NCBI GenBank assembly: GCA_036374135.1
Contig: DASUUK010000024.1
Coordinates: 17,305-81,304, forward strand
Direction of reading: 5' to 3'
Origin: Euzebyales bacterium
GTDB taxonomy: Bacteria > Actinomycetota > Nitriliruptoria > Euzebyales > JAHELV01
DNA: 64,000 nucleotides
Part shown: positions 4,345 through 28,006 of the stretch, piece by piece
How positions within the stretch are numbered: the stretch's first letter is position 1
Layout of the letters: each line of letters opens with the position of its first letter
Position numbers and translations under genes: made by a program
Notes under the pieces: generated by a model
Told to the model about the DNA's origin: nothing
Seen by the model: the letters and a program-made list of their open reading frames with translations, nothing else
Database searches by the model: none

Positions 4345-5391
4345 TCAGGCCAGGACGGCCTTGAGCCGGTCGACCGCCTCGATCGGCGTGGGATCCACAC
4401 CACGCGCGAGCGCCGTGTACACGCTGATCAGGTCGACGTGCAGCAGCAGCTCCGCCAGGCGGGCCAGCGGTGGGCCGCCGGTCGACGCCACCTCGGCTGT
4501 CCACGCGAAGTGCCTGTCGGTGATGTCCACCGACGGCGCCACCCGCCGCTTGACCTCGCCGTGCTCGCCGTCGGGGTCACGCACCATGAGCAGCGCGCTA
4601 CGGGGGGTCAGGTGCTCCAGCCAGTGACCGACGATGGCGTTGTGGTCGGCCTCAGGCAGCGTCGCGGCGTAGGCGGGCAGCTTGGCGTTCTCGTTGAGCT
4701 GCGTGACGAGGCGGTGCGCCACGACCGATGCCAACCCCTGCGTGCCCCACGCCACCGCCAGGTCGACCTGCGCCAGCTGCTCCGCGAGGCGCTTGGCCGG
4801 GTTGTCACGCCGCGGGATGTGCCGACCGCAGGCGGCGACCGCGCGGCGCTGACCCGCGATCGCGTCGTCGAGCTGACCGCCCAGCCCGAAGACCCCCAGC
4901 AGCGGCACCAGCAACCAGCCCAGACTGTGGCGGGGCGGGGCACCCGCCGGCACGACTGCGACGGGCCAGCCCTGCTCGTGGGCACGCGCCCCCAGCCGCC
5001 CACCGCTGGTCACGACGGCGATCGGGGCACCGCGGAGCTCGGCCTGGGTGACGGCGTCGAGGGTCTCGGCGGTGTTGCCGGAGTGGGAGACCGCGATGAC
5101 CTGCGTCGACGGACCGACGAAGCACGGCAGGCCGTAGCCCTGGTGAACGACCAGCGGCACCTCCAGCTCGTCGAGCAGCAGCGCCGCCAGCAGGTGCCCC
5201 ACGATCCCCGAGCCGCCCATGCCGACGACACAGACCTGCTCGGCGAGGGTCAGGTCGACGTTCAGCCCGACGCGTCGTGCGTCGTCCCACTGCCACGGCG
5301 CGCCTTCGACATCGGCGAGCGCGTCGCTGAGGTCGACGCGGCCGTAGTGGTCGGGCTCGTCGAGATCGACGCCACCGTCGAGGTCGGTCAT
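4345..5391 (-). CDS. SIS-domain bifunctional phosphoglucose/phosphomannose isomerase-like protein
   Basis: 348 aa with a SIS motif (VCVVGMGGSGIVG, VIAVSHSGNTAETL). It lies in an operon-like series with manB. Confidence 0.75.
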   Translation of the reverse strand: MTDLDGGVDLDEPDHYGRVDLSDALADVEGAPWQWDDARRVGLNVDLTLAEQVCVVGMGGSGIVGHLLAALLLDELEVPLVVHQGYGLPCFVGPSTQVIAVSHSGNTAETLDAVTQAELRGAPIAVVTSGGRLGARAHEQGWPVAVVPAGAPPRHSLGWLLVPLLGVFGLGGQLDDAIAGQRRAVAACGRHIPRRDNPAKRLAEQLAQVDLAVAWGTQGLASVVAHRLVTQLNENAKLPAYAATLPEADHNAIVGHWLEHLTPRSALLMVRDPDGEHGEVKRRVAPSVDITDRHFAWTAEVASTGGPPLARLAELLLHVDLISVYTALARGVDPTPIEAVDRLKAVLA

Positions 5392-5406: not shown

Positions 5407-5598
5407 TCAGGAGCTGCTGCGGCTCGGCCGGCGCGGCGGCGACGCCTCTTCGACCAGCATCACGGGGATGTTCTCGCGCACCGGGTAGTGCAGCTCACAC
5501 TGCGTGCAGATGATGACCTTGCGCCGATCCTTGTAGACGATCTCACCATGGCAGGCGGGACAGATCAGCAGGTCGATCAGGGACTGGTCGACAGCCAT
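5407..5598 (-). CDS. Trm112/UPF0434 family small zinc-ribbon protein
   Basis: MAVDQSLIDLLICPACHGEI...CTQCELHYPVRENIPVMLVEEA. ATG 5598 is preceded by AAGGAGAA. The longer track ORF (to 5775) overlaps manB and is rejected. Confidence 0.8.
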   Translation of the reverse strand: MAVDQSLIDLLICPACHGEIVYKDRRKVIICTQCELHYPVRENIPVMLVEEASPPRRPSRSSS

Positions 5599-5650: not shown

Positions 5651-7015
5651 CTAGGAACGGACCAGCGCGAGCACCTCGTCGCGGATGGCGGCCATCGTCT
5701 CGGCGTCGGTGGCTTCGACGTTGAGGCGCAGCATCGGTTCGGTGTTCGACGGGCGGACGTTGAACCACCAGACACCCGACGAGACGGTCAGGCCGTCAGC
5801 GTAGTCCGCGTCGCCACGGTCGGCGAACGCGTCAGCGACGGTGATGACCGCGGCGTCGGCGTCGGCGACCCGGCTGTTGATCTCGCCCGACTGCACGTAC
5901 ACGTCGTACGGGGCGACCATCTCGGCGAGTGAACCACCGTGGGCGCTGAGCGCCTCGAGGAGGATCAGCGCGGCGATGAGGCCGGAGTCCGCACGGAAGT
6001 TGTCCCGGAAGTAGTAGTGGCCGGAGTGCTCGCCCCCGAAGATCGCGCCCGTCTCCGCCATCACCGACTTGATGTAGGAGTGGCCGACCCGCGTGCGCAC
6101 CGGGCGTCCACCGGCGCGTCGGATGGTCTCCGGCACGATGCGCGAGCAGATCAGGTTGTACAGCACCGGCGCACCCGGATCGCGCGCGAGCATGCGCTCG
6201 GCCGCGACCGCGGTGACCAGTGACGGTGACACCGGCCGGCCTGCGCCGTCGACGCAGAACATGCGGTCGGCGTCGCCGTCGAAGGCCAGGCCGATGTCAC
6301 ATGCGTCGGCGCGCACCAGCGCCGTCAGGTCGGCGAGGTTCTCCGGCTCGATGGGACTGGCCGGGTGGTTGGGGAACGTCCCGTCGAGCTCGAAGTACAA
6401 CGGCACCAGCTCGAACGGCAGCGGGCCGAACACCGCGGGCACGACGTGGCCGGCCATGCCGTTACCCGCGTCGACGGCGACACGCAGCGGCCGCAGGACC
6501 GTCGTGTCGACGAAGCTGCGCACGTGGGCGGCGAAGTCGTCGAGCACGTCGATCTCGCGATGGCCGCCCTCCCGCGGCGCCGCAGCGAACCGGCCGGCGG
6601 CGGCGCGGTCACGGATGCGTCGGAGGCCGGTGTCGAAGGCGACGGGCTCGGCGCCGGCACGGCACAACTTCAACCCGTTGTAGCCGGCGGGGTTGTGGCT
6701 GGCCGTCACCATGACGCCCGGCAGATCCAGGTGGCCGGACGCGTAGTACAGCATGTCGGTCGACGCCAGCCCCAGGTCGATGGTGTCCACTCCCTGGGCG
6801 CGGGCGCCACGCATCACCGCGTCCGCGAGCACCGGTGAGCTGGGGCGCATGTCCCGACCCACGAGCATGCCCGACGCCGCCAACTCGACCGCGGCGGCCC
6901 GGCCGATCAGGTGTGCGAGGTCCGTGTCGAGCTCGGACGGAACGAGGCCCCGGACGTCGTAGGCCTTGACGACCCGATCGAGCCTCACCGACGGGTCAGC
7001 ATTGGTCACGGACAC
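5651..7015 (-). CDS. manB: Phosphomannomutase/phosphoglucomutase
   Basis: 454 aa. It has the active-site loop VMVTASHNPAGYNGLK, the metal loop AFDGDADR and the sugar-binding GGEHSGHYYF. Confidence 0.92.
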   Translation of the reverse strand: MSVTNADPSVRLDRVVKAYDVRGLVPSELDTDLAHLIGRAAAVELAASGMLVGRDMRPSSPVLADAVMRGARAQGVDTIDLGLASTDMLYYASGHLDLPGVMVTASHNPAGYNGLKLCRAGAEPVAFDTGLRRIRDRAAAGRFAAAPREGGHREIDVLDDFAAHVRSFVDTTVLRPLRVAVDAGNGMAGHVVPAVFGPLPFELVPLYFELDGTFPNHPASPIEPENLADLTALVRADACDIGLAFDGDADRMFCVDGAGRPVSPSLVTAVAAERMLARDPGAPVLYNLICSRIVPETIRRAGGRPVRTRVGHSYIKSVMAETGAIFGGEHSGHYYFRDNFRADSGLIAALILLEALSAHGGSLAEMVAPYDVYVQSGEINSRVADADAAVITVADAFADRGDADYADGLTVSSGVWWFNVRPSNTEPMLRLNVEATDAETMAAIRDEVLALVRS

Positions 7016-7028
7016 CGACCGCCGGGCA

Positions 7029-7583
7029 TCACGTAGGCCGGCTGCGTGTCAACGCGACCACAACGCCGCGGGATTCCGGCTCGATCGGCATCTGCAGCTG
7101 GCCCTGCAGCTCGAAGGCCTCGTCGTCGAGCAGCGTGCGCGTGACCGGCTCGTAGGGGTGCCCGGTTCGGCGCTCGACCGCCCGTGCATCCTCAGCCGAC
7201 GGACCGCCGGCCGCCGTCGGCGCCAGGTTGTCGACCGACGGGGAGGACTGCTCGGGCCCGGGTGGCTCCTCCGCGGCCGCGCCGACACCCCACGCCTCGG
7301 CCAGACGCGGCAGCGCGGCCGTCAGGGCCGCATAGCGATCGGGACCGGGGTTCGACGACGGCGGGTCCGGCGGCACCTGGGGGTCGGGTTCGGGTGACCG
7401 CGTCCGCCGGTCGAGGCGTTCCCATCCGCGCGGCACGATCAGGACGTCGGCGTGCGCCGCACACAGGTCGTAGAACGCGGGGTCCTTGTCCTCGGACAGG
7501 TCGACGAGCGACGCCTGGCGCGCGTCGTACCGGAACGACAGCGTCACCGTCGCCGCCTGCTGACATCCCGCTCGCTGGCACAT
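7029..7583 (-). CDS. DUF3499-like protein (Cys-rich N-terminus, Pro-rich tail)
   Basis: MCQRAGCQQAATVTLSFRYD...YDLCAAHADVLIVPRGWERLD resembles the DUF3499 family found next to manB in actinobacteria. The start is uncertain. The track ORF extends to 7718, but that extension has poor GC3 and contains a hairpin. Confidence 0.7.
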   Translation of the reverse strand: MCQRAGCQQAATVTLSFRYDARQASLVDLSEDKDPAFYDLCAAHADVLIVPRGWERLDRRTRSPEPDPQVPPDPPSSNPGPDRYAALTAALPRLAEAWGVGAAAEEPPGPEQSSPSVDNLAPTAAGGPSAEDARAVERRTGHPYEPVTRTLLDDEAFELQGQLQMPIEPESRGVVVALTRSRPT

Positions 7584-7693
7584 CCGTTGGGCTGCGGGAG
7601 CGACTGCCCCGCCCTGAGCTCCATGGAACCAGGCGCCGCCCGGGTGGTCCTTGGCCAGCGGAGCCGTTCCTCGACGTGTCGCGTGCAACAGGG

Positions 7694-7725
7694 CCCCGCG
7701 GATGTCGTGATCACTCATCGCGGGG
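7694..7725 (-). terminator. GC-rich hairpin (CCCCGCG-N18-CGCGGGG) downstream of the DUF5719-like gene
   Basis: A 7-bp inverted repeat is seen directly at 7694-7700 / 7719-7725, followed on the minus strand by CCCTGTTGC. Its position between a stop (7800) and the next start fits an intrinsic terminator or attenuator. Confidence 0.35.
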
Positions 7726-7799
7726 CAACAGTAGACGACCCACCGGTCGATTCGGGCGAACCGCCACCATCAGCGGCGGAGAGCGGTCGGGCACGCACT

Positions 7800-9308
7800 C
7801 TACCGGTCCTGCTGCGCCGGGAAGTCGACCGGCCGGGTCCCCAGGGTCTCGTCCCGACGTGGGATCGGCGCGTCCTGCGAGCCCTCCCAGGTGTTCGCGG
7901 GGACGAGCGGCAGGGTCAGCAGGCAGCTCACCCGCTTGCTGCCGGCGAGGCGCAGGGTGGCGTACAGCGGCTGATCGGCGGACACGGTGACGGGCGCGCC
8001 GCCGTCGGTGACCCCCGCCTGCGCGAACGGCAGGAGGCGCATCTCGCCCGCTGCGATCTCGAGGGCGTCCCACCCCTCGGGCGCGACGCCCGAGGCGCTG
8101 GCGGTGGCCGTGACCGGTGTGGAGCCGGCGTTGTACAGCGCGAGTGCAGGACCCGTGCCACCGGGCGCTGTCGCCGCGACGCTGGTCTGATCGGCCTCAG
8201 GGATCCCGGCCAGCGAGGTCACGGCGGCGTCGTCACCGCTCCTGGCGACGAAGCTGGTCGCGACGAAGCCGACGTCGTTGGTCGACGTCACCGTCACACC
8301 GAAGGTCGACTTCGACGACAGTCCTTCGAGCTCGATCCGCTCGACGCTCTCGGGCCCGACGACCACCTCCTGCGCCACGGCCTCCGCGGCGACCTCGTCG
8401 CTGGCGCTCACCTCGAGCTCGGCGGAGCGGGTGTTCGGGTTCAGGACGGTGATCCACGACGCGTTGCGCTCGTCGGCGGCCGCGTATGCGAACCCGGCGG
8501 AGGTCGCGTCGGACGGTTGCGCCTGCAGCACGGTCCGTCCCGCCGGCGCACCGGTGTCGCTGGACACCCCGGCTCCGTCGAGCTCGATGTCCGGCAGATC
8601 CGGTTGACCGAACTGCTGCACACCGGTGGCGATGACCCGGCCCGCGTCGACCTCGACGATCACGCCGAGGTCGGGTTGCTCGGGTTGTAGATCGCTCACA
8701 TCCACCGCGATGACGTCACGGGCGGGCACCGACAGGTTCTCGCTGGACACCAGGTTGACCCGCCCCTCGGGTGTGGCGAAGGCGACACGCGCGACGGCGT
8801 CGGAGTCAAACGGGTTGAACAGGTAGACGCGCGTGCTTGATCCGATGACGGTCGAGGCACCGCTCAGCAGCCAGCGGGGCGCGGGACTGGGGGTGCACGA
8901 GTCGCCCAGGCGGTCGCCTCCACGCCCCTCCACGTTCCACGAGGCGGTCGCGGGCCCGCCCCGCCAGCGGATCTCCACGGCGGGCGGACGCCTGCCGCCG
9001 TCGATCTCGATCTCCTCGGTGTCGCCCGGTTCGAGCTGGCGGGGCTCACCCAGATCCTCGACCTGACCGCCACCCACGCTGGCGACGGTCACCCGTGACG
9101 TGTCCTCACCCGCGGCCGCGACGGTCAGCGTGGCCGTCTCGCCGTTGCGCGCGATCGGGACGCAGTACCACGCGCCGCTGTTGACGTCGATCTGCTCGGC
9201 GAACGTCGCGGACGGCGGCTCGGGTGCCGCGACGACGCGGTCGGCGGCCACCGTTGCGCCAACCAGCAACGCGAGAACGGTCAGGACGAATGCGATCTGC
9301 CGGCTCAT
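7800..9308 (-). CDS. Secreted/anchored protein of unknown function, DUF5719-like
   Basis: 502 aa. It has an N-terminal hydrophobic signal/anchor (IAFVLTVLALLVGATVAA) and Ala/Val/Gly/Thr-rich beta-type sequence with no catalytic motif. GGGGAG lies 7 nt upstream of the ATG. It sits directly downstream of the giant GT2. Confidence 0.6.
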   Translation of the reverse strand: MSRQIAFVLTVLALLVGATVAADRVVAAPEPPSATFAEQIDVNSGAWYCVPIARNGETATLTVAAAGEDTSRVTVASVGGGQVEDLGEPRQLEPGDTEEIEIDGGRRPPAVEIRWRGGPATASWNVEGRGGDRLGDSCTPSPAPRWLLSGASTVIGSSTRVYLFNPFDSDAVARVAFATPEGRVNLVSSENLSVPARDVIAVDVSDLQPEQPDLGVIVEVDAGRVIATGVQQFGQPDLPDIELDGAGVSSDTGAPAGRTVLQAQPSDATSAGFAYAAADERNASWITVLNPNTRSAELEVSASDEVAAEAVAQEVVVGPESVERIELEGLSSKSTFGVTVTSTNDVGFVATSFVARSGDDAAVTSLAGIPEADQTSVAATAPGGTGPALALYNAGSTPVTATASASGVAPEGWDALEIAAGEMRLLPFAQAGVTDGGAPVTVSADQPLYATLRLAGSKRVSCLLTLPLVPANTWEGSQDAPIPRRDETLGTRPVDFPAQQDR

Positions 9309-9323
9309 CGTGAACTCCCCGAC

Positions 9324-12300
9324 CTACCGCAGGTCGCCGGTGATCGTGGCGGCCGCCGCGGCACGCGCGGCGGGCCCGGGCATGGGGGCCGGGTACGGCC
9401 CGACGTGGACGTCGTCGATGTCGCGACGGTCGACGCCGCTGCGCGGCGGCCGCAGCGCCAGCGAGATCACGGCGAACACGGCCAGCAGCTGCGCTGCGAC
9501 CACCCAGAGGTGCCGTGTCTCGCCGCCTGGGGTGATCTCCAGCCGGCCCGGCTCGGTGATCTCGTAGACGTTGGCGTACACACCCGGCACGGCTTGCAGC
9601 CGTTGGCCGTCGAGCTCGACGTTCCAGCGTGACGACCGGGCCTCCGACAGCAGGAGCCAGCCCGGCACCACGTCGCCGGTGTACGACCCGGGCGCGGTCT
9701 CACGGAGGCCGTCGTCCTCGAGGGCGCCGGTGTCGACCTGCCGCACGGCATCGGCGGCGGACTGCGCGGTGTCAGCGGGCACGACCGCGGCACGTGGCAG
9801 CCACGTCGACACCTCGAAGATCTGCCCGGCGCCGGATGGGAGCGGCTCCAGATCGGGTTGGGCGGACAGCAGGCCGGCGATCTCCGAGCGGTTGTCGCGA
9901 TCGTGGATCACGACGTAGCGCACGTTGAGGAGACCGAGCTCGAGCGCGGCACGCGGATCGCCCAGGCCGATCGATGCCACCGACCGTGCGAAGTCGCCGG
10001 AGAGCGGCTCGCTCGGCGACGTGCCGAACTGCAGCATCGTGGGGCCGTCGGCGTCGGTGACGTCCCAGTCGAGCGTGTCCTCACCGCCGGACAGCAGCAG
10101 GATCCGGTAGTTGCCGATGCGCTCGACGTCGGCGGCCACGAACGCCGGGACCAGGTCGCGGGCGATGCGCAGCTCCGACCACGGATCGGTGACCACCCGG
10201 TACAGCCCGCCGGCGAGCCCGGCGACCAGCACGAGCGCGCATCCGGCCGCCAGCACCTGGCGGAGCCCGAAGTTGTAGGTGCGGAGATGATCGCTGATGC
10301 TGCGGGCGGCGAGTGTCGCCAGCCCCGCCAGCGCCAGGGCGCCGGGCAGCAGCAGCGCCGGGATCCACGTGGTCTCCAGACCCAGGAAGCCGATCCCCCA
10401 GGCGATCATGCCCCAGATGGTGATGACGCCGAGCAGGACGACCACAGCGGTCGCACGCCCGCGGCCCGTCAGCAACAGGGCGGCGCCCACGACGCCGGCC
10501 GTGACCAGCGCCGCGACGTACACGCCGATCGGTTCGAGCCCGGGAAGGATGTCGGGGGCCAGCAGGAACGCCTGCCAGGCGGTCACCGGCTCGAACGGGG
10601 CGGCGTCGATGACCTGCCCACCGCTCCGGACCACGTCGGCCAGCCAGGGGGCCAGCACGATGAGCGCGAGCGGGGCGGCGCTGAACGTGCGCAGAAGCGC
10701 CCCGCGACGCGACCCCACGCCCGCCGCGACCACGGCGGTCAACCAGATGCCCGCCGGCACCATCCACGCCCCCGGTGCGGCCGACCACAGGATCGCGAGC
10801 ACCAGGGCCATGACCGCCGACGCGCGCCAGCCCTCAGCCGGTGTCCGGCGGTGGTCGGCGCTCCAGACGGCGAGCACCACCAGGCCGGGCAGCAGCGCGG
10901 CGACCAGCAGTTCGCTGAACCGTCCCTCGGCCAGCGCGCCGAGGACCGCGGGGCTCAGCGTGTACACGGTGGCGCCGAGCAGACGTGGCCACATGCGGGT
11001 CGACAGCAGCCGCCCGGCGCGGATCGTCAGGATGAACGCCAACGGCAGCATGCCGAGGACGACCAGGCGCTGGGCCAACCACATCGAGCCGAGACCCAGG
11101 TAGCTGAGCAGACCGAGCACCGGTTGGACGGGTGGCAGGAACGACCAGGATCCCAGCGGGTCGCCGTGCCACGGGTGGGTGTACGCGCGGATGAAGTCCG
11201 TGGCCTCGTCGGGCCACGGCAGCACCTGGCCACCGATGATCTGCCCGCCGCCGAGCAGCGGGATGGCGCCCACGAGATAGAGCGCCAGCAGGATCGGCCC
11301 GACGATCAGGCTGGGGTGGCGTCGCAGGAACGCGCCCAGCGTCCGCGACTGGGACGTGCGCAGGGTCGCGGTCGTCGGATCCTCGAGCAGGCGTGGCGTC
11401 CGCGAACCCGACAGCCAGGTACCGATGGCCTCGCCGTAGTCGCGCAGCCGCGCCCACGGACTGGCGAACAGCGGACGAAGGTCACTGTCGGTCCGTCGTC
11501 GCAGCTGCTGCACCCCGCGTCGCAGCAGCAGCGTGCGCGGGAGCCTGAGCACGTTCCAGCCGACGGCCTTCAGGCCGGCCGTGCCCGCACCCACGCGGCG
11601 GGTCAACAGCAGCCCCAGCGCCCGGAACAGGAACAGCACCGTGCCGACCGGGATCAGCAGCGCCAGCCGCGCCAGGCTGTAGTTCTTGAGCATCGCCGCG
11701 AGCGTGTGGCGCTCTGTCAGGTACTCGACCTCGTGGGAGCGGTCCTCACCGAGGGGACGTCCGCCACGCTCGCCCGCACTGACGTGGTAGCCGACCGCGT
11801 GCGGTACGACCCGCACGCGGTAGCCCGCGATCCATGCGCGCCAGCACAGGTCCAGGTCCTCGCGCGCGAACGACATGCGGGTGTCGAACCCACCGAGCCC
11901 CTCGTACGCGTCGGACCGCACGATCATGCCGGCGGTCGACACGAACAGCGTGTCGGTCTCCTCGTCGTGCTGACCCTGGTCGATCTCGCCGGGGTCCAGC
12001 TGTCGTGACCACCGGCCGAACGGATCGATCGTCTGGCCGACCTGCTGGACCAACGGCTCCTGGGACCACTCGCGCAGCTTGGGTCCGGCCACCGCGACCT
12101 CGGGGTCGGCCTCCATCGTCGCCAGCAGCGTGGCGACGGTGTCGACGGTCATCACGAGGTCGTCGTGGAGCATGAGGACCAGCGGCGCGCCGGCCAGCGC
12201 CGGGTGTCTCCGGCCGATCTCGAACGCCTCGGCGAATGTGCGCGGCTCGTCGAGCCGGACGAGCCGGTCGGCGGTCACCCGCGATGTGAGCAGGTCCGAC

Positions 12301-12458
12301 GACCCGTCGGTCGAGGCGTTGTCGACGACGATCAGTTCCAGGGCGGCGATGCGCCAGTCTGCGATCGTGCCCAGGATCACCGGCAGCCATCGCAGGCCGT
12401 TGTGGACGACAAGGACAACGCCGAGACGTGGGCGAGCTACCGAATCTGTGAACGACAT
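9324..12458 (-). CDS. Family-2 glycosyltransferase fused to a large polytopic membrane domain and a C-terminal extracytoplasmic domain
   Basis: 1044 aa. The N-terminus has a GT-A fold (VVLVVHNG, VVDNASTDGS, MLHDD, REDLDLCWR). It is followed by roughly 15 or more hydrophobic segments and a ~250-aa soluble C-terminus. Confidence 0.85.
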   Translation of the reverse strand: MSFTDSVARPRLGVVLVVHNGLRWLPVILGTIADWRIAALELIVVDNASTDGSSDLLTSRVTADRLVRLDEPRTFAEAFEIGRRHPALAGAPLVLMLHDDLVMTVDTVATLLATMEADPEVAVAGPKLREWSQEPLVQQVGQTIDPFGRWSRQLDPGEIDQGQHDEETDTLFVSTAGMIVRSDAYEGLGGFDTRMSFAREDLDLCWRAWIAGYRVRVVPHAVGYHVSAGERGGRPLGEDRSHEVEYLTERHTLAAMLKNYSLARLALLIPVGTVLFLFRALGLLLTRRVGAGTAGLKAVGWNVLRLPRTLLLRRGVQQLRRRTDSDLRPLFASPWARLRDYGEAIGTWLSGSRTPRLLEDPTTATLRTSQSRTLGAFLRRHPSLIVGPILLALYLVGAIPLLGGGQIIGGQVLPWPDEATDFIRAYTHPWHGDPLGSWSFLPPVQPVLGLLSYLGLGSMWLAQRLVVLGMLPLAFILTIRAGRLLSTRMWPRLLGATVYTLSPAVLGALAEGRFSELLVAALLPGLVVLAVWSADHRRTPAEGWRASAVMALVLAILWSAAPGAWMVPAGIWLTAVVAAGVGSRRGALLRTFSAAPLALIVLAPWLADVVRSGGQVIDAAPFEPVTAWQAFLLAPDILPGLEPIGVYVAALVTAGVVGAALLLTGRGRATAVVVLLGVITIWGMIAWGIGFLGLETTWIPALLLPGALALAGLATLAARSISDHLRTYNFGLRQVLAAGCALVLVAGLAGGLYRVVTDPWSELRIARDLVPAFVAADVERIGNYRILLLSGGEDTLDWDVTDADGPTMLQFGTSPSEPLSGDFARSVASIGLGDPRAALELGLLNVRYVVIHDRDNRSEIAGLLSAQPDLEPLPSGAGQIFEVSTWLPRAAVVPADTAQSAADAVRQVDTGALEDDGLRETAPGSYTGDVVPGWLLLSEARSSRWNVELDGQRLQAVPGVYANVYEITEPGRLEITPGGETRHLWVVAAQLLAVFAVISLALRPPRSGVDRRDIDDVHVGPYPAPMPGPAARAAAAATITGDLR

Positions 12459-12562
12459 GGAGGAAGGACTGGCGCTCGAGAAGAGATTCCGCCCGCTTCA
12501 CCGGGCCGTAACCCTACGCATCGTAGCCCGTCGGCTTCACTCGCCCACGGGGGTGCACCTGC

Positions 12563-12808
12563 CTAAGAGGCCAACCGCTTGAGCTTGCGACGCTCGCGCT
12601 CGCTCATCCCGCCCCAGATGCCGAACCGCTCGTCGTGCTCCACGGCGTACTCGAGGCACTCGACCCGCACCGTGCACTCCGAGCAGATGCGCTTGGCCTC
12701 CCGGGTCGAGCCGCCCTTCTCGGGGAAGAAGACGTCAGGGTCGGCGTTGAGGCACTTCGCCTCGTCGGCCCACGGTACCGGTTCGATGAACACGTCTTCC
12801 CCTGTCAC
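12563..12808 (-). CDS. whiB: WhiB-family Fe-S transcriptional regulator
   Basis: 81 aa with four Cys (C..CSEC..VEC), the GIWGG turn and a basic tail (ERERRKLKRL). GTG start. Confidence 0.92.
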   Translation of the reverse strand: MTGEDVFIEPVPWADEAKCLNADPDVFFPEKGGSTREAKRICSECTVRVECLEYAVEHDERFGIWGGMSERERRKLKRLAS

Positions 12809-12982
12809 GCGAGTGCATCCGCCGACGTGCGGGCGTCCCGTTCCGCGGCCCTGCAGGTGCCGCGCTGCGGTTCCTCACACGTTTGGAACTCCACCTGTGT
12901 AACTATGCTCGCGCCCACGCGCATCGTCAACCCGGGATCCGGGTGTTTTCGCGATATTGGCGCGTGTTGTGTAGTGAGAAGA
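12809..12982 (-). promoter_or_regulatory. whiB upstream region with candidate promoter
   Basis: This is a lower-GC stretch. On the minus strand, TTGACG (12930-12925) is followed 16-19 nt later by CATAGTTA (12908-12900). A small hairpin, CCCGG-GAT-CCGGG (12931-12943), lies just after the rarA stop. Confidence 0.3.
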
Positions 12983-14332
12983 CTACTCTGCGTCGTTCTT
13001 ACGGAGCCACGTGTGCATGTCCGGCTCACGTCCGTGGGTTCCCGGCCGGTACAGCTGACCGGACACGAGCCCGTCCGGTCCGTACTGCTGTGCCACCCAG
13101 CCGCGGGGGTCGTCATGGGGATAGCGGTATCCCGCGCCGTGGCCCAGCCGTTTCGCGCCCTTGTAGTGCGCGTCACGCAGGTGCGCCGGCACGGCGGCGT
13201 TGCCCAGCCGTTCGACGGCACGGTCGGCATTGACCAGCGCGTTCGTGACGCTGTTCGACTTGGGTGCCAGCGCGAGGTACAGGGCGGCCTGCGCCAGCGC
13301 GAAGCGTGCCTCGGGAAGTCCGACCGACTCCAGCGCGTGCCACGCCGATGTCGCCACCGACAGCGCGTCCGGATCGGCGAGCCCGACGTCCTCGCTGGCC
13401 AGGATGATCATCCTGCGTGCCAGGAACCTGGGGTCCTCGCCCTCGGTGAGCATCCGTACCAGCCAGTAGACGGCCGCATCAGGATCCGAGCCCCGCAGCG
13501 ACTTGATGAACGCGCTGACCTGGTCGTAGTGGGCGTCACCGGACTTGTCGTAACGCATGTGAGGGCTGCCCAGCGCGACCCGCACGTCATCACCGGTCAC
13601 TTCACGGCCCGCGGCGGTCGCGGCCGCCGCCTCGAGTCCGGTCAACGCCACCCGGGCGTCGCCGTCGGCGGCCGCGATCAACGCGGTCCGCGCGTCGCGA
13701 GCCAGCTGCACACCTGGAAGGCCGTCAGCGCGGTCCAACGCCCGATCGATGACCCGGCCGATCGCGTCGTCGTCCAACGGACGCAGCCGATACAGCAGGC
13801 TGCGCGACAGCAGTGGTGCGTTGACCTCGAAGCTGGGGTTCTCGGTCGTGGCACCGATCAGCGTCACCGAGCCGTCCTCCACCGCCGGCAGGAGTGCATC
13901 CTGCTGCGCCCGGTTGAAGCGGTGGATCTCGTCGATGAACAGCACCGTGGCGCGGTCGGCGGCATCGCGGCGCGTCCGCGCGCGCTCGATCTGCTCGCGG
14001 ACCTCGCGTACGCCGGCGGTCACCGCCGACAGCTCCACGAACGCGGCGCTGGTGGTCGCCGCGATCACACGTGCCAGGGTCGTCTTGCCGGTGCCCGGTG
14101 GTCCCCACAACACGATGCTGCGCAGCGCGTCGGTCTCGATCGCACGCCGCAGTGGCGAGTCGGGACCGGTCAGCTGCTCCTGACCGATCAGCTCCTCGAG
14201 CCGCGCCGGGCGCACCCGCGCCGCGAGCGGGACGCCGGCCGATGACGTCGTCGGCGGTACGTCCACGTCGGGCGGCTCGGCGCCGAACAGCGACGCCGTG
14301 CCACCCGGGTCGTCCTGGAGACCCCGGGTCAC
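12983..14332 (-). CDS. rarA: Replication-associated recombination protein A (AAA+ ATPase)
   Basis: The C-terminal 450 aa of ORF 12983..15220 carry Walker A (LWGPPGTGKTT), Walker B (LFIDEIHRFN) and the MgsA C-terminal motifs (HYDQVSAFIKSLRGSD, AHLRDAHY). The start is placed at GTG 14332 (VTRGLQDD...SLFG). The longer ORF overlaps the divergent csaB-like gene. Confidence 0.9.
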   Translation of the reverse strand: MTRGLQDDPGGTASLFGAEPPDVDVPPTTSSAGVPLAARVRPARLEELIGQEQLTGPDSPLRRAIETDALRSIVLWGPPGTGKTTLARVIAATTSAAFVELSAVTAGVREVREQIERARTRRDAADRATVLFIDEIHRFNRAQQDALLPAVEDGSVTLIGATTENPSFEVNAPLLSRSLLYRLRPLDDDAIGRVIDRALDRADGLPGVQLARDARTALIAAADGDARVALTGLEAAAATAAGREVTGDDVRVALGSPHMRYDKSGDAHYDQVSAFIKSLRGSDPDAAVYWLVRMLTEGEDPRFLARRMIILASEDVGLADPDALSVATSAWHALESVGLPEARFALAQAALYLALAPKSNSVTNALVNADRAVERLGNAAVPAHLRDAHYKGAKRLGHGAGYRYPHDDPRGWVAQQYGPDGLVSGQLYRPGTHGREPDMHTWLRKNDAE

Positions 14333-14435
14333 GGCGCGCTCGGCGTGGTCGATGCGTCCATCAGGCAACGGTAACGCCTCGACGCCCGTGGTGGGCACGC
14401 CATCCACGGTCGGTGAGCACGGGAGGTGGCAGCGC

Positions 14436-15515
14436 GTGCGCGTGACCGTCGCCGCCTGGATCGGCTCGGCCAACGCGGGTGACGAGCTGATCTTCGCCGC
14501 GCTGCGCGCGAAGCTCGTCGCGCGCGGTGCGCGCGTGACGGCGATCACCGCGCACGCCCGCGACGCCGACGGTGGCGTCCCGGCGGTGGGCCACCTCGAC
14601 GCCGCCGCCGTGTGGCGGGCGGTCGCGGGCGGCGATGCGCTGGTGTTCGGCGGTGGCGGACTGCTCCAGGACCAGACGTCGTCGTTCAACCTGCCGTTGC
14701 ACCTGTCACGGCTGTGGATCGCGGGGCTGACGCGGACACCGCACGCGGTCGTCGGCGTCGGAGCGGGTCCGCTGCAGACACGCATCGGACGGGGCCAGGT
14801 GCGCCGCGCGCTGCGGGGTGCGACGGCCGTGACCGTCCGGGATCGCCCATCCGCACGGACCCTGCGGCGCGCAGGCGTGCGCGGCGTACGGGTGACCGCC
14901 GACCTGGCCGTGTCCCTGCCGTCACCCCAGGTCGCGCCGGCGGACGCCATCACCGCGTGCCTTCGTCCCTGGCGCGGGGGACGCAACTGCCTGCCCGTCG
15001 CCACGCGAGCCGCCCGCGACGTCACACCGGAGGCGATGGTCGACCGTCTCGCGCGGGGCCTCGATGCCGCTGCGGGGGCGCTCGGGCTGCCCGTGCGACT
15101 GGTCGCGATGCAGCGCGGGTGGGACGATCTGCTCCACGCCCGCGTCGCACGGCGACTGCGCGCGCCCGTGACACTGCTGAGTCCTCCACCGGAGCGGGTC
15201 GTCGCCGAGATCGCGGCCACCCGTGTGGTGGTGGCGATGCGCTACCACGCGGCCGTCGCCGCCATACTCGCCGGGCGCCCTGCGGCGCTGATCGGCTACG
15301 CGCCGAAGGTGGCGGCGATCGGGGCCGAGATGGGCCCCGCGGCACGCATGGTCGGGTGGACGCCCGAGGCGCTGGACGGTCTGGCCGACGCGGTGCTCGC
15401 CGTCGCGGGTCGCGACCACGACCTGCCCGCCGTGCTCAGCGACCTGCGCGCACGTGAGCGCGGCAACGACACCGTGCTCGACGATCTCCTCACGCTCGCC
15501 GAGGCCCGCCGCTGA
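14436..15515 (+). CDS. csaB: Polysaccharide pyruvyl transferase (CsaB-like)
   Basis: VTVAAWIGSANAGDELIF...GDALVFGGGGLLQDQTS...VGVGAGPL...VTVRDRPS fits the PS_pyruv_trans pattern. GTG 14436 is preceded by GGGAGGTGG. Confidence 0.85.
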   Translation: MRVTVAAWIGSANAGDELIFAALRAKLVARGARVTAITAHARDADGGVPAVGHLDAAAVWRAVAGGDALVFGGGGLLQDQTSSFNLPLHLSRLWIAGLTRTPHAVVGVGAGPLQTRIGRGQVRRALRGATAVTVRDRPSARTLRRAGVRGVRVTADLAVSLPSPQVAPADAITACLRPWRGGRNCLPVATRAARDVTPEAMVDRLARGLDAAAGALGLPVRLVAMQRGWDDLLHARVARRLRAPVTLLSPPPERVVAEIAATRVVVAMRYHAAVAAILAGRPAALIGYAPKVAAIGAEMGPAARMVGWTPEALDGLADAVLAVAGRDHDLPAVLSDLRARERGNDTVLDDLLTLAEARR

Positions 15516-15592: not shown

Positions 15593-16717
15593 TCAGCCAT
15601 GCGCCACACGGCCGACCGGCGGGGGCGGGTCGCGCGTGAGTGCGAGCAGGTCGGCCAGGATCCGCTCGGACGGGCGCCGGTCGAGGTCCGCCCGTCCACG
15701 GCGGTAGCGGTCGGGATCGGCGATGACCTCGGCGACGGTCTGCGGGCGGTAGCCGGACAGCACCACGTTGGCGCCGAGTCCGTCGGACCGCTCCGTCCTC
15801 GCCCGCCACAACAGCGTCGGCACCCCCAGCAGCGCGCACTCCTCCTGCACACTGCCGCCGTCGGTGATGACCAGCCGCGCGCCGGCGATGGCGTGCACGA
15901 ACGCCCGATGGGAGATCACCGGCGACACCTCGATCCCGGCGTCGATCACACGCCCGTGCAGGCCCATCCGGTGCAGAGCGCGCACGGTCGGCGCGTGGAC
16001 CACGAACAGCACCCGCATGGTCGTGGCCAGCCGCTCCACGGTCGCGACGAGGCGCTCGACCCGTCGTCGGCTGGTCAGGTTCTCGACCCGGTGCATCGTC
16101 ACCACCGCCCCGCCGCCCGATGGCCGTGCCCGCCCGAGCGCGTCGCGCAACGCGTCGATCACCGTGTTGCCGTCGAGCGCCACCGACCGACGATCGAGTC
16201 CCATAGCGCGCAGGTTGTCCATCGCGGCGGCATCGGGCGCGAACAACCTGGTGGCCAGGCGCATCACGAGGACCCTGATCGCCTCCTCGGGAAACGGCTG
16301 GCGCAGGCTGTGCGAGCGCAGGCCCGCCTCGAGGTGGGCGACCGCCAGCCCGGCACGCCTGGCCAGCAGCGCTGACAGCAGCGTGGATGGCGTGTCACCG
16401 TGGACGACGCACACGCCGCCACGGTCGCCGAAGATCTCGCGACGGACGGCGCGCGACGACCACAATCGTCCGGCGATGCCGCCGGCCCAGGCGACGGCAC
16501 CGGCGATCGAGGTGATGTCGTCGGCACCGCCGAGCACGACGTCCGGCTGCCGGACCCCGAGATCGGCACGCATCGTGGCGGACAGGCGCGCGTGCTGGCC
16601 CGAGTCGATCAGCCGGTGATCGATGCCGCGTGCCGTCAGCAGGCGCAGCAGCGGCGCGGTCTTGATGTACTGGGCCTTCGTGCCCACGAAGATGTGGATG
16701 GCGTCCTTGCCTCGCAC
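15593..16717 (-). CDS. UDP-N-acetylglucosamine 2-epimerase (WecB/MnaA)-like protein
   Basis: IHIFVGTKAQYIKTAPL, VVHGDTPSTL, AHLEAGLRS and ITDGGSVQEE match non-hydrolysing 2-epimerase motifs. The start is placed at GTG 16717 after GGAGGGG. The track ORF (to 16927) has an Arg/Cys-rich, implausible extension. Confidence 0.8.
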   Translation of the reverse strand: MRGKDAIHIFVGTKAQYIKTAPLLRLLTARGIDHRLIDSGQHARLSATMRADLGVRQPDVVLGGADDITSIAGAVAWAGGIAGRLWSSRAVRREIFGDRGGVCVVHGDTPSTLLSALLARRAGLAVAHLEAGLRSHSLRQPFPEEAIRVLVMRLATRLFAPDAAAMDNLRAMGLDRRSVALDGNTVIDALRDALGRARPSGGGAVVTMHRVENLTSRRRVERLVATVERLATTMRVLFVVHAPTVRALHRMGLHGRVIDAGIEVSPVISHRAFVHAIAGARLVITDGGSVQEECALLGVPTLLWRARTERSDGLGANVVLSGYRPQTVAEVIADPDRYRRGRADLDRRPSERILADLLALTRDPPPPVGRVAHG

Positions 16718-16905
16718 CCGCCGGATCCCCTCCGCGCCATGCTCTGGACCTGGGCGTCGCAGGCACCGTCGAGGTGGCAGCATAACCACGCGCGTCGCCC
16801 CCACCGCGGCACGGCGGCGGCAGCGCGACATGTGCAGCACATCGACGGCGCGACCAGGGCCCCGACTTTGGCGTCGCGAACCCGAGGGCGGCGTCGAGCA
16901 GGTGC

Positions 16906-16920
16906 GCGAACGGTGTTCGC
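16906..16920. promoter_or_regulatory. Perfect 6-3-6 inverted repeat GCGAAC-GGT-GTTCGC, candidate TetR operator
   Basis: Seen directly. It lies 27 nt upstream of the tetR ATG, and TAGAGT (16934-16939) is a -10-like hexamer just downstream. It sits in the divergent intergenic region shared with the epimerase-like gene. Confidence 0.4.
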
Positions 16921-16946
16921 ACTGCAACTTCTGTTAGAGTGCCGGC

Positions 16947-17708
16947 ATGCCGACACGACGAGAGCGCCTACGCGCCGAGCTGACGGGCCAGATCAAGGCC
17001 GCTGCACTCGAGCGTCTGCAGACCCACGGGGCCGATGGACTGTCACTGCGGGCAGTCGCACGCGATGTCGGGCTGAGCGCACCGGGCATGTACCGCTACT
17101 TCGACAGTCGTGACGCGCTGCTGACGGCACTCATCACCGAGGGTTACGAGGACCTGGCCGATCACGTCATCTTCGCGGTCATCGGGAGCGACCAGCCGCT
17201 GTCGGACGGTGATCGGCCTGCGCCGATGGTGCCGGAGCGCGTACCGGTCAACGCGCCACCGGCGCAGCGCTTCGGTGCGTCGGCGCGGGCGTACCGGCAC
17301 TGGTCACGAACCCATCCCAACGAGTTCGCCCTGCTGTACGGCACTCCGATCCCCGGGTACGCGGCGCCCACGGGTGGCCCGACCGTCGACGCCGTGCGAC
17401 GGATGTCGATCGCGCTGCTCCGTCCCCTGGTGGAGGCGCACGTCGTCGATGCGCTCCGCATCCCCGAGAGCTTCGCCGCCGACGACCTCGGGGACGCGAC
17501 CGCGCTGCTGCGTGCCGACATCGCCGATCTGGCGGGCATGCCCGTCCCCGCGGCGCTGCCGCCGTTCCTCCTGGCGACGTGGGCGCGTCTGCACGGCATC
17601 GTCACCCTCGAGGTGTTCAACCAGTTCGCGTTCGCGTTCGGCGACGACGCCGGCGACCTGTTCGAAGCCGAGCTCGCGTCACTCACCGCGCAGACGTTCA
17701 TCGGCTGA
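16947..17708 (+). CDS. TetR/AcrR family transcriptional regulator
   Basis: N-terminal HTH (LSLRAVARDVGLSAPGMYRYFDSRDALL) and a C-terminal ligand domain with a WxxLHG-type ending (TWARLHGIVTLEV). Confidence 0.9.
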   Translation: MPTRRERLRAELTGQIKAAALERLQTHGADGLSLRAVARDVGLSAPGMYRYFDSRDALLTALITEGYEDLADHVIFAVIGSDQPLSDGDRPAPMVPERVPVNAPPAQRFGASARAYRHWSRTHPNEFALLYGTPIPGYAAPTGGPTVDAVRRMSIALLRPLVEAHVVDALRIPESFAADDLGDATALLRADIADLAGMPVPAALPPFLLATWARLHGIVTLEVFNQFAFAFGDDAGDLFEAELASLTAQTFIG

Positions 17709-17835: not shown

Positions 17836-20800
17836 CTACGGTGAGCCGAGCAGGTAGTCCATCGAGCGCTGCATCACCTCGTTGCGCTCCGCTTCGGTGG
17901 CGATGCCCTCGAACCCGAAGCCGTGCAGCACCGTGTCCTCGGTCGTGATCGCGGCCCCGAACTGGTAGATCGCGCCGATGCGTTGCCAGTCGGTCGGGTT
18001 CGTCCCGCTACCCTCCGGAGCACCGATGACCTCCCAGCCACCGAGGTCCTGCTCGAACGATGTCTCGGCCAGCGTGGCGCCGTCCGCGGTGATGACCGGC
18101 TCGTCCACGAACACCCCGAGGTCACCGGTCGCCCAGTCAGTGGCGTAGGTCAGCGAGACCTCGATCTGCTGACCGACGTACGCCGACAGGTCGATGGACC
18201 AGTCCTCGATGCCGTCCGACGGACCCGATGTCGCGTGCCACTCGCCCGTGGTGCCGGTTCCCGAGCACGTGGCCTGGCCGTCCTCGTCGGTGGTCACCGT
18301 CTGGTAGTGCTCGAGCTGCGGGTGGATCTGCTCCGCCCATCCACTGGTGCACGACGAGCCCGTGTCGACCGATGTGTGCCCGTTGCTGTCAGGCAGCGTC
18401 GTCCAGTTGTCCTCGCCGACGGTGTGCACCTCGACGAAGAAGTAGTCCCAGTCGGCCTCGGTCTGGTAGGTCGTCGAGAACTCGAGCGTCGCGCTGGTGC
18501 CGGCGCCCGTCAGGTCGATCGCCCGGGCCAGGCGCTTGTAGGACCGGTCGTTGTGCTGGGCCGCAACCTGCCACTCGCCATCGGACGGCTCGAACGGCGC
18601 CGGCTCGCCGGTGAGCCATCTGGCCGACCGCCACGACTCGAACTGTGGGAACTCGTCGACCGGCAGCACACCGCTGGTCGCAGCCCAGGACGCCGTGCCC
18701 GTGCTGGCGGCGCCCGGCGCGCCCTGGTTGTCCGCGCTCTCGTCGCCGTCGAGGCCCCACTCGAGGTCGGCGTACGGCGTGTCCACACCGGCGATGTCGA
18801 ACGCGATGCCGTCGTCGTCGAGCCCACCGCGACGTATCCGTACGTAACCTCCGAAGTAGTACTGGTAGGTGTCGTTCGACAGCGTCAGGCAGTTGTTGCT
18901 CGTGCAGACCTCGGTCGGGTCGGCGTTCTCGCCGTAGGAGAGCGGGAAGAACTCCTCGAAGCCGTGGTTCTTGCCCGTCGCGAGGATCTTGCCGCCCTCG
19001 TTGAGGTAGTCGCGCATGGCCATGTTGACCTCGTGCGCGACCAGCGTGGTGTTCAGCCCTCCCTGGTAGTTGGTGACGAGCTTGTCGCCCGTGTACCAGA
19101 CCACCGCGTCGTAGTGGGCCAGCACGCCCAGCGGGTGCGGTGCGGGGCCGTCGATGCCCACGTCGTACACGTCCCAGCCGTACCCGGCCGCGTCGAGCGC
19201 CTTGGTGTAGTAGTCGAGGTACGCCAGCGGCGTCGTGCCACCGAGGTCGGTGCCGGGGCTGTTGTCCGCGACGATCAGTACCTCGTCACCACTGGTGCTC
19301 TCGACCGTGAACGTGAAGTGGTCACTCTCGACCGTCTCTGCGCCACCGCGCGGACCTGCGCTGGTCTCTCTGCGCTCGGGCAGATCCCTGGCTGTGAACC
19401 AGACCTCGACCTCGTCGCCGGCCGCGATGTCGGTGATCTGACCGCGGTACTCGGCGTACCAGACGTTGTTCTCGACGCCGTAGCGCTCGCCGCCCTGCCA
19501 CTCGGAGACGTCGGTCACCCGCGTGCGACCACCGTTGACCGAGTGGTGCATCCTGAGCCGGGTGTGCTCGCGCTTGGTCCACATCGCAACCGTCTGCGGC
19601 GCGCCGTAGCTGACGGAGAAGTCGTCGACCACGAAGTCGGGCGCCGGTGTGCCGACCGGTGACTCGGGGTCGGCCGGGTCGTCAGCGGACTCGGCCATGG
19701 CGAGCGCGAAATCGAGGTTCTTGGCGAACTCGAACTCCACCAGCGGCTCGGAGTCGGGGAACTCGAAGACGGACCGTCCCTCGTCGGTGCAGTAGTCCGG
19801 ACCGAACTCGTCATCGGTGAAGTAGGTGGTCGCCGTCTGGCACGTCGCGAGCTCCGGCGTGTATGCCAGGACCCCGTAGGCGGTGTGGGCGTGGTCCGTC
19901 GTGTCGCCGTTGGTGATGTAGAGCTCGGCCGACAGATCGGGGTCGTAGCCCTCGATCGCCGGATTGGCGTCGGTGCCTGCGAGCGCGATGTTCACGGCGT
20001 CGTCCGGCGTCGGCGTGTCGACCTGCCAGCCGACGCCGTACAGGATCAGCTCTGCGGCGGAGTGGTAGTTCACCAGGAACGAGAAGTCGACCGACGACAC
20101 CAGCCCGTCCAACGCCTGCGTCTCGGGCTCGGACGCCGGACCCGTCCCGCGGTAGGTCTCGCTGGACGGATCCTCGGACGATCCTTCGTTGTCGTAGCCC
20201 CAGTTGGTCGGGAAGTTGCGGTTGAGGTCGACGCCGTCACCGGTGGTGATCGCTCCATCCCCGTCGTTGTCGCGGAGGTTCTTGCGCCAGAGGCGCTGGC
20301 CGTCGGTGAAGGTCCAGTCGTACCCGTCGGGGTTGGCGACCAGCACGAACCACAGCTCGCGGCTGTCGACCAGCCTGGTCACCTGCGCATCGGTGCCGTA
20401 GCTCTCGAGGAAGTGGCGCAGCAGCCGGCGGTTGACCTCCGTGCTGATCCACTCGCGGGCGTGCTGGGTCGAGACGTACAGCACGGCCGGACGCTGGCCC
20501 TCCTGCACCCGGTCGGCGTCGGCGGTGACGCGCATGGCATAGATCGGCTGACCCTGGACGCTCTCGCCGATGGTGATGAGCTCGGTCAGGCCGTCGTACT
20601 GCGAGGCCAGCAGCTCCAACTCGTCGGCGATGCCGCCGGGCTCGCTGAAGCTTCGCCACACCTCGAAGCCGTTGTCGGCCTCGAGCGTGGCCGCCTGGGC
20701 TGTCGTCAGCCCATCGTCGCTGCGCTTGAGCCGGACCTCGAGGCCGCGCCTGCGGCCGTTGCCCTGGCGCAGTGCATGGGCCTGACCCTCGGTGAGGACC

Positions 20801-21015: not shown

Positions 21016-21224
21016 CCTGTTGGTCCTTCCGCCAAGTCCGCGCACGTCGACGTGCGCGCCGACGGCGCGCATTGTGCGCACACGACCGGGTTCGCTTCAA
21101 GGGGTGACGTACCCAGCGGTGGCGCACAACGCGACCGGCGTCCGAGCACTCCGTGTCGGCGGCACAGCGGGGGTCGACATCGCCCGTCGCAGGGCGGAAA
21201 GGAGCGCCGGACCGCGCTGCGCCG

Positions 21225-27870: not shown

Positions 27871-28006
27871 GTCGAAGAAGTCCGACAGCGCAACGACCTT
27901 CCGTGCTGGAGAACCGGCTGGATATACCGCCACGTGATAGCCGGATCGACCGGCGTGTCATCGGATGACGCTAGCACGTCGCACGACCGTGGACGAAGGA
28001 GACAGC

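Follow-up and report, generated by a model that had tools for sequence, protein, structure and literature searches.

Introduction

WhiB, or WhiB2, is an actinobacterial signature regulator required for cell division, and its gene in Streptomyces (whiB, SCO3034) and Mycobacterium (whiB2, Rv3260c) lies in a neighbourhood of shared order, fbiB-fbiA-whiB ... Zincin_1 (DUF1025)-DUF3499-pmm-Trm112-SIS ... sahH-mtrA-mtrB-lpqB, where mtrAB-lpqB is a cell-envelope control system. According to our analysis a copy of this neighbourhood is present in a 64-kb stretch of DNA from a Euzebyales bacterium (class Nitriliruptoria; contig DASUUK010000024.1; GC content about 70%), which is referred to below as the window. 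Directly downstream of whiB it carries a gene for a 1,044-aa fusion of a glycosyltransferase family 2 (GT2) domain with a membrane protein, labelled here GT2f, followed by a gene of the DUF5719 family. We show that the block is real, ancient and spread phylum-wide, and that its central GT2f-DUF5719 pair is uncharacterised.

By gene order we take SCO3033 and SCO3032 to be probable Streptomyces orthologues of GT2f and DUF5719. Compared with the Streptomyces and Mycobacterium arrangement, the Euzebyales copy has no Zincin_1, fbiAB or manC at the locus and carries rarA upstream instead; it is thus an ordinary orthologue of the block in reduced form. A conserved linkage of SCO3031 (DUF1025) with whiB was described earlier (Chater & Chandra 2013; PMC4255298).

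Seven co-oriented open reading frames (ORFs) of the minus strand make up the block. Their families were matched above the Pfam or NCBIfam cut-offs, which bears out the domain assignments made in an earlier, sequence-only reading of this DNA, and the genes stand at or near the positions given there. The structural features were taken from AlphaFold2 (AF2) models.

12902..12930, minus strand: promoter-like site upstream of whiB, TTGACG-17-CATAGT (consensus scan only, not evidence of function)
12563..12808, minus strand: whiB, iron-sulfur (Fe-S) transcription factor of the WhiB/WhiB2-type Wbl family (PF02467, 92.4 bits against a gathering threshold of 23.6)
9324..12458, minus strand: GT2f, fusion of GT-A and polytopic membrane glycosyltransferase, 1,044 aa (ORF and translation, AF2)
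11769..12431, minus strand: predicted cytoplasmic GT-A domain of GT2f, aa 10-230 (GT2 Pfam models, Foldseek, invariant residues)
10191..11339, minus strand: predicted membrane module of GT2f, aa 374-756, about 13 transmembrane (TM) helices (AF2 helices, hydropathy, positive-inside rule)
9453..10145, minus strand: predicted extracytoplasmic alpha/beta domain (aa 772-977), terminal TM helix (aa 980-1002) and basic cytoplasmic tail of GT2f
7800..9308, minus strand: DUF5719, signal or anchor helix and four beta-sandwich domains (PF18986, 76.9 against a gathering threshold of 26.2)
7029..7583 (likely; longest ORF to 7718), minus strand: DUF3499 (PF12005, 60.6 against a gathering threshold of 25)
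5651..7015, minus strand: PMM, phosphomannomutase/phosphoglucomutase (NF007088, 633.7 bits against 618; four PGM_PMM Pfam domains)
5407..5598, minus strand: Trm112-like zinc-ribbon protein, 63 aa (PF03966; ATG with an AAGGAG site upstream)
4345..5391, minus strand: SIS-domain isomerase of phosphoglucose/phosphomannose isomerase (PGI/PMI) type, in Rv3256c-type position (PF10432; TIGR02128, 217.3 against 213.9 bits)

The gaps of 15 nt between GT2f and DUF5719 (9309-9323) and of 13 nt between DUF3499 and PMM (7016-7028) are also as first reported. For DUF3499 the ATG at 7583 is more likely the true start than 7718, because members of the family begin about six residues before the first cysteine, and the gap between DUF5719 and DUF3499 would therefore be 216 nt and not 81 nt.

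Synteny and operon structure

We scanned one genome per GTDB species for the motifs E[LIY]DQGQHD and [RG][DEA]D[LM]DL[CG]WR, and at least 561 stretches were confirmed among the matches listed. Synteny was counted in the best 80 of these at least 561 stretches, scored by locally built hidden Markov models, and each denominator comprises the loci with enough flanking sequence. The 80 loci come from Egibacteraceae, Nitriliruptoraceae, Euzebyaceae, Streptosporangium, Microbispora, Nonomuraea, Nocardioides and Jiangella among others, and also include Frankiales, Nanopelagicales, Streptomyces and one representative of Acidimicrobiia (Ca. Microthrix). The whiB gene stands directly upstream of GT2f, on the same strand, in 73 of 74 loci, with Microthrix as the sole exception, and DUF5719 directly downstream of it in 64 of 65. 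DUF3499 is found not more than 5 kb from GT2f in 43/49 loci, with three further at 5-6 kb, and PMM not more than 7 kb away in 42/47. The recurring order whiB>GT2f>DUF5719>(Zincin_1<)DUF3499>PMM>Trm112>SIS is shared by Nitriliruptoria and Actinomycetes, and most of it occurs in the one Acidimicrobiia locus. An arrangement that recurs in about 80 independent genomes is far beyond chance; the co-localisation, whose extent the sequence-only reading had left to such a comparison, is kept far outside close relatives.

The protein family itself is large. A GT2f profile compared with 1.84 billion cluster representatives matched 3,954 representatives of 50%-identity clusters with E<=1e-30; the 150th best match still had 1e-108, and most of the listed matches span nearly the whole profile. 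Names of the cluster members are nearly all the generic 'GT2 family glycosyltransferase', with one Acidimicrobiia label, and NCBI has a protein of 100% identity to the GT2f of the window, encoded in a metagenome-assembled genome of Euzebyales. A homologue search with a DUF5719 profile added one distant match only (P0172), which led to a further locus, L001. On a metagenomic contig of 1 Mb, whose DUF5719 is distant (27% identity, covering one quarter of the protein), the order is manC ... fbiB-fbiA-whiB-GT2f-DUF5719-Zincin_1 (opposite strand)-DUF3499-PMM-Trm112-SIS ... sahH-mtrA-mtrB-lpqB; a closer relative has rarA-manC-whiB-GT2f-DUF5719-DUF3499-PMM-Trm112-SIS.

Some loci depart from this order. 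The Microthrix locus (L073) reads fbiB-fbiA-GT2f-DUF5719-rarA-PMM-Trm112, with no detectable whiB or DUF3499. One locus (L022) has whiB-GT2f, with DUF5719 and DUF3499 not detectable, and in a Streptomyces sp. (L079) and in L040 DUF3499 and Zincin_1 form a pair that is inverted compared with the other genomes. The full order fbiA-whiB-GT2f-DUF5719-DUF3499-PMM-Trm112-sahH-mtrA was also met on a contig labelled Rubricoccaceae, which is not Actinomycetota (L075, JBEIHR010000044.1), and this is probably a mis-binned contig.

How much function can be read from this conservation is a separate matter. Adjacency alone is weak evidence of shared function here, because fbiA/fbiB, sahH, hisG and rarA, which are functionally unrelated, are equally conserved neighbours across classes. 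On the strength of these genes it could even be suggested that the adjacency of the whole block is inherited chromosomal backbone with no shared function, in which functional grouping is confined to the GT2f-DUF5719 pair and to the PMM unit. We consider it very unlikely, as genes for the envelope and for division are enriched around the block (mtrAB-lpqB, manC, amidases, LytR-CpsA-Psr (LCP) ligases), and the block order recurs in two classes, with GT2f-DUF5719-PMM found also in the Acidimicrobiia locus.

The spacing of the genes divides the block. The sequence-only reading had described whiB, GT2f, DUF5719 and DUF3499 as four co-oriented genes with tight spacing, but they do not form one unit. 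In 56 of 67 loci the start codon of DUF5719 and the stop codon of GT2f share 4 or 1 nt, and such translational coupling implies a fixed pair. Between whiB and GT2f the median distance is 114 nt (range 6-429, and one apparent overlap). Between DUF5719 and DUF3499 most relatives carry Zincin_1 (DUF1025) on the opposite strand, splitting off the downstream genes, which are themselves close together: the median gaps are 35 nt for DUF3499-PMM and 4 nt for both PMM-Trm112 and Trm112-SIS, with many 4-nt overlaps. From the spacing, the overlaps and the opposite-strand Zincin_1 we therefore distinguish the units whiB, GT2f-DUF5719 and DUF3499-PMM-Trm112-SIS. A single whiB-GT2f-DUF5719-DUF3499 operon was rejected on the whiB spacing and on Zincin_1 in most loci; the genes of the window are themselves co-oriented, and no Zincin_1 gene occurs anywhere in its 64 kb. 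The region consists, then, of three anciently linked, separate units of an actinobacterial core neighbourhood running from whiB to mtrAB. The first of them, whiB, probably has its own promoter region, and the last is, judging from its gene families, a hexose-phosphate interconversion operon. In the window the whiB-GT2f interval contains no terminator and no significant RNA structure, Rfam gave no match between 3 and 17 kb, and the repeats within the block region are coding-sequence noise.

Mycobacterium and Corynebacterium presumably keep whiB2-DUF3499-pmmA without GT2f and DUF5719 at the locus, and because of this order we regard the two halves of the block as separable. Parts of the order agree with published descriptions (PMC8562490, PMC7775120).

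These results bear directly on the idea with which the block was first presented, namely that its four genes, together with manB and a PMI gene, form one mannose-derived envelope glycan pathway under WhiB control. On this view the adjacent genes would make GDP-mannose or polyprenyl-P-mannose as the donor for GT2f, and WhiB would turn the pathway on in development or division. It is in line with this idea that PMM is kept near GT2f and that ManC is often encoded just upstream of whiB or fbiAB, that polyprenyl-P-mannose serves extracytoplasmic GT-C enzymes in actinomycetes (PMC5982138), and that SCO3030 and whiB are both listed among the sigma-E and BldC regulons (PMC10771440). However, nothing identifies the donor sugar, and the description of the downstream genes as a GDP-mannose supply stood only in part: the PMM and PGI/PMI-type genes are there, but no ManC guanylyltransferase (GDP-mannose pyrophosphorylase) is encoded anywhere in the 64-kb window. 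The units are physically apart, with an opposite-strand gene between them in most genomes; whiB is not coupled to GT2f, and adjacency is all that speaks for WhiB control, while fbiA/fbiB, sahH and hisG are just as conserved in spite of their unrelated functions. The lineages which we take to have kept whiB2-DUF3499-pmmA without the pair also count against it. A single mannose pathway is thus, in our opinion, unlikely. Mannose is possible as the sugar of GT2f, and nothing measured points to it.

The glycosyltransferase and its exported partner

The AF2 model of GT2f (pLDDT 81.8, pTM 0.76) predicts a GT-A domain at aa 12-225, amphipathic basic helices at aa 238-350, about 13 TM helices at aa 374-756, an alpha/beta domain at aa 772-977 and a last TM helix at aa 980-1002. 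By the positive-inside rule the GT-A domain and the C-terminal tail would be cytoplasmic, and the first outer loop (403-460) and the 772-977 domain would be outside; this loop is long and contains 1 K+R versus 19 in the preceding loop. Some Actinomycetes have far larger GT2f proteins, reaching about 1,500 aa from stop to stop, compared with the 1,044-aa Euzebyales form.

For the N-terminal domain, GT2 Pfam models match aa 10-227 only (PF13641 39.6, PF13632 34.6 and PF00535 31.4, above the cut-off), and in Foldseek against PDB this domain is similar to ppGalNAc-T and GT2 enzymes with E of about 1e-9. In an alignment of 69 diverse members the GT-A set D46, H98-D99-D100 (the DXD motif), D192, D201-x-D203, W206-R207, H225 and R234 is invariant, as is a family-specific loop E158-x-D-Q-G-Q-x-D165. 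The basic residues R279/R287/R305/R311/R339, near the membrane, are conserved.

The sequence-only reading had described GT2f as synthase-type. The QxxRW motif is absent in all 69 members (0/69) and for this reason GT2f is not a synthase of the cellulose or hyaluronan type; the candidature of a processive GT2 synthase like BcsA, HAS, NodC or PgaC was rejected, the PgaC model TIGR03937 giving 23.4 versus 422. Among the NCBIfam models MftF and EpsD come closest to the GT-A domain, with all scores far below cut-off (MftF 65 vs 280). These models we take to represent COG1216-type glycosyltransferases acting on sugar acceptors. MftF, EpsD, WbbL and GlfT1/GlfT2 are the best NCBIfam or PDB sequence matches of the domain, and DXD and ED-D-L..R-like motifs are kept. 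GT2f differs from them in scoring below the cut-offs of MftF and of the rhamnosyltransferase model (25 vs 200), and in having the invariant ExDQGQxD loop as well as an extension of 800 aa, made up of membrane part and ectodomain. Orthology of GT2f to WbbL was also rejected, with TIGR01556 at 24.8 against 200.55 bits and a separate GT2 adjoining the LCP ligase in the window.

The profile and structure-prediction check proposed with the sequence-only reading recognised the GT-A domain and the DUF families, and the membrane module matched no Pfam model or PDB sequence. Among the top 50 Foldseek hits in PDB, AftD (6wby), an arabinofuranosyltransferase of Rv0236c type in the GT-C superfamily, is the sole non-GT-A solved structure, and the match is weak (E 4.9e-8, 828 columns, TM-score only 0.27-0.31). 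In GT2f the polytopic module precedes a soluble domain at the outer face and one more C-terminal TM helix, and AftD has a similar layout. Unlike AftD, to which it has no sequence similarity, GT2f lacks the invariant first-loop acid and adds the N-terminal cytoplasmic GT-A domain. D421, the best acid candidate in the first outer loop, is Asp/Glu in 47/69 members and Ala in 14. The membrane module is predicted to be GT-C-like in fold at best, and canonical GT-C chemistry is not supported.

A combination of a cytoplasmic GT-A step with a subsequent extracytoplasmic step in a polytopic GT-C-like protein is known from three-component systems, in which the GT2 enzyme GtrB/CsbB works with the flippase GtrA/GtcA and the GT-C protein GtrC/YfhO, and from the polyprenyl-P-mannose route of Ppm1/Pmt. 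GT2f might be a fused relay of the GtrB/CsbB-GtrA-GtrC/YfhO type, in which the GT-A domain loads one sugar onto polyprenyl phosphate and, after a flip, the GT-C-like module transfers it to a wall polymer, lipoglycan or protein outside, DUF5719 presenting the acceptor. Such a relay would fit the fusion in GT2f, where one chain joins the GT-A domain and its interface helices, the polytopic AftD-like module and the ectodomain; it would also fit the conserved arginines near the membrane and weak PDB sequence matches of GT2f to ArnC and DPMS. But with the MftF/EpsD models, which stand for enzymes acting on sugar acceptors, the GT-A domain reaches much higher scores than with ArnC or DPMS, and the catalytic acid that GT-C enzymes canonically carry in their first outer loop is not conserved. 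GT2f differs from the Gtr-type systems also by holding both modules in one polypeptide, by the absence of a linked flippase gene and by its obligatory exported beta-sandwich partner. We therefore find a relay of this kind rather improbable.

Conservation in the membrane module falls mostly on Gly and Pro residues; conserved besides these are Y499 and R513, placed at the inner side, and R545, W605 and H983, placed at the outer, and in the C-terminal portion P771, H983 and P1005 are conserved. The module diverges fast (in BLAST the window shows no similarity to L001), while the GT-A domain is about 38% identical. Together with the lack of an invariant acid and the presence of an ABC exporter and an LCP ligase nearby, this would agree with a non-catalytic module which anchors and orients the GT-A domain or is a scaffold or conduit to an exporter (the candidate is a Wzm/Wzt-type ABC system 11-13 kb upstream), with DUF5719 as a structural periplasmic spacer. 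Yet the conserved R513, R545, W605, H983 and Y499 suggest a ligand site, and an ectodomain with a strictly coupled exported partner would be costly for a mere anchor; we doubt that a purely structural module is the answer.

The AF2 model of DUF5719 (pLDDT 84.9) has an N-terminal hydrophobic helix and then four beta-sandwich domains, and Foldseek relates it to the macroglobulin-domain arrays of complement C3c and alpha-2-macroglobulin and, at single-domain level, to TM1070 and the Anabaena sensory rhodopsin transducer (ASRT). The N-terminal hydrophobic segment is present in 58/62 relatives, with no lipobox. Conservation across the family is limited to C49, C138, W146, N165 and G223-R224; C49 and C138 form a probable disulfide, and there is no catalytic residue set among the family-conserved positions. 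This pattern suits a binding or scaffold protein and not an enzyme, and from its sequence DUF5719 appears to be exported or N-terminally anchored and non-enzymatic. A PDB sequence search with it gave nothing useful, and the identical NCBI protein is named 'DUF5719 family protein'.

Functional interpretation

From these data it would be reasonable to suggest that GT2f glycosylates a lipid-linked acceptor inside the cell, that its membrane module binds the carrier or assists a step at the outer face, and that DUF5719 and the ectodomain hold the glycan. This is our best explanation, and we give it a probability of about 0.5. In more explicit form, the acceptor to which the GT-A domain would add one or several sugars lies at the inner membrane face and is linked to polyprenyl-(pyro)phosphate; the AftD-like module, with its conserved outer-face residues R545, W605 and H983, would bind the lipid carrier and perform or assist a second, outer-face step; and the GT2f ectodomain with DUF5719 may bind envelope glycan at the outer face.

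Several results weigh against this explanation. The lipid-linked acceptor is deduced only from the basic amphipathic helices and the analogy to MftF/EpsD-like enzymes. Beyond aa 343 no acidic position is conserved in 80% or more of the 69 members. The membrane module has no sequence match in PDB, with either the single sequence or a broad profile, and for the C-terminal portion no Pfam match, including GT-C families, was obtained with three separate parts at E<=10 or with 22 diverse members at E<=1. The literature searched gave no characterised orthologue or assigned product for GT2f, DUF5719 or DUF3499, in agreement with what the sequence-only reading had supposed for these three middle proteins (DUF3499 has an envelope phenotype from a transposon screen only), and it contained no mention of DUF5719, SCO3033 or the guessed S. 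venezuelae tags; SCO3032 is named in a single paper, on NRPS/PKS gene clusters.

We may go further than the glycosylation of a lipid-linked acceptor and speculate, though with a good deal of reserve, that GT2f-DUF5719 is a core machine for an unidentified envelope glycan or wall modification ancestral to Actinomycetota. It would combine an inner GT-A step with an outer, divergent GT-C-like step of Arg/His and not Asp chemistry, would be tied to WhiB2-dependent septation, and would have been lost in the lineage in which arabinogalactan evolved.

New in this work are the division of the block into operon-like units, the joining of a GT-A domain to an AftD-like module that lacks a canonical acid, and the coupling to DUF5719; new as well is the evidence that speaks against a synthase-type enzyme, against mannose and against WhiB control. 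Being kept beside whiB across two or three classes, the GT2f-DUF5719 pair is a testable candidate for a missing step of actinobacterial envelope assembly, and its family spans Streptomyces, Nocardioides and the abundant freshwater Nanopelagicales. Should the membrane module turn out to be catalytic although it lacks the canonical GT-C acid, the known chemistry of the GT-C fold would become wider.

Other genes of the neighbourhood

The translation of whiB contains C19, C42, C45 and C51 (C..C-x2-C-x5-C), a GIWGG turn and the basic C-terminus RRKLKRL. Its position between fbiA/rarA and GT2f matches the synteny of SCO3034, with the same flanks in 73/74 relatives.

In the hexose-phosphate unit, DUF3499 has an invariant C-x4-C...C-x2-H pattern in 59 sequences and an invariant PRGWE motif, consistent with a cytoplasmic CCCH zinc-ribbon-like protein encoded by the first gene of the PMM unit; a PDB sequence search with it gave nothing useful. 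The Trm112-like gene is conserved between PMM and SIS, often with a 4-nt overlap, and in nearly all relatives the PMM gene is flanked by these two zinc-ribbon-type proteins, DUF3499 (CCCH) and the Trm112-like one (CPxC...CxxC). The Trm112-like ycaR of E. coli also adjoins a sugar-nucleotide gene, kdsB. Compared with the P. aerophilum PGI/PMI (1TZB), the SIS protein has the equivalents of E203, H219 and K298, and the PMI-linked Thr291 aligns to Ile; the roles of these residues were taken in part from PMC8562490. The SIS protein of the equivalent locus of M. tuberculosis, Rv3256c, is flanked by pmmA and manA, its molecular function being unresolved (PMC8562490). In C. glutamicum the DUF3499 gene Cg0853 is described as the first gene, of unknown function, of a mannose-6-phosphate synthesis operon with pmmA/manA, and an envelope phenotype was found for it in a transposon screen (PMC7775120).

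Upstream of the block, at a distance of 2-15 kb, the window contains further envelope genes (CsaB-like, WecB, Wzm/Wzt-type, a second GT2 and LCP), listed here with the genes around them.

12983-15220, minus strand: rarA/MgsA AAA+ gene, directly upstream of whiB (longest ORF 745 aa)
14298-15515, plus strand: CsaB-like polysaccharide pyruvyl transferase (TIGR03609, 168 bits, below the cut-off of 213)
15593-16927, minus strand: WecB/MnaA-type UDP-GlcNAc 2-epimerase, adjoining the CsaB-like gene
16947-17708, plus strand: TetR regulator, adjoining the M14 gene
17836-21081, minus strand: M14 zinc carboxypeptidase with InhA-like MAM domains, 1,081 aa
21225-27933, minus strand: putative wall-glycopolymer export and attachment cluster, including an uncharacterised 539-aa protein
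23018-24199, minus strand: TagH/Wzt-like ABC ATPase
24192-25172, minus strand: Wzm-like permease
25282-26376, minus strand: second GT2, 364 aa, matching the MftF/EpsD models too
26395-27933, minus strand: LCP ligase (LytR-CpsA-Psr family)

Judged by its gene content, this cluster makes up a complete ABC-exporter route for a wall glycopolymer near the block. The second GT2 stands beside the LCP ligase as a WbbL-like stand-alone enzyme, separate from GT2f. The CsaB-like/WecB pair lies 1.5-4 kb upstream of whiB, and such a pair is typical of secondary cell wall polymers with pyruvylated ManNAc. The rarA gene occupies the place where most relatives carry fbiA/fbiB or manC; its real start is probably later than that of the longest ORF, because about 330 N-terminal residues have no domain. 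On a related contig (L003, 1-8361) rarA, which lies there shortly before manC-whiB, is flanked by genes for four proteins with CW_binding_2 repeats: one amidase, one M23 peptidase and two S8 peptidases. This hints at a wall polymer anchoring surface proteins in that lineage.

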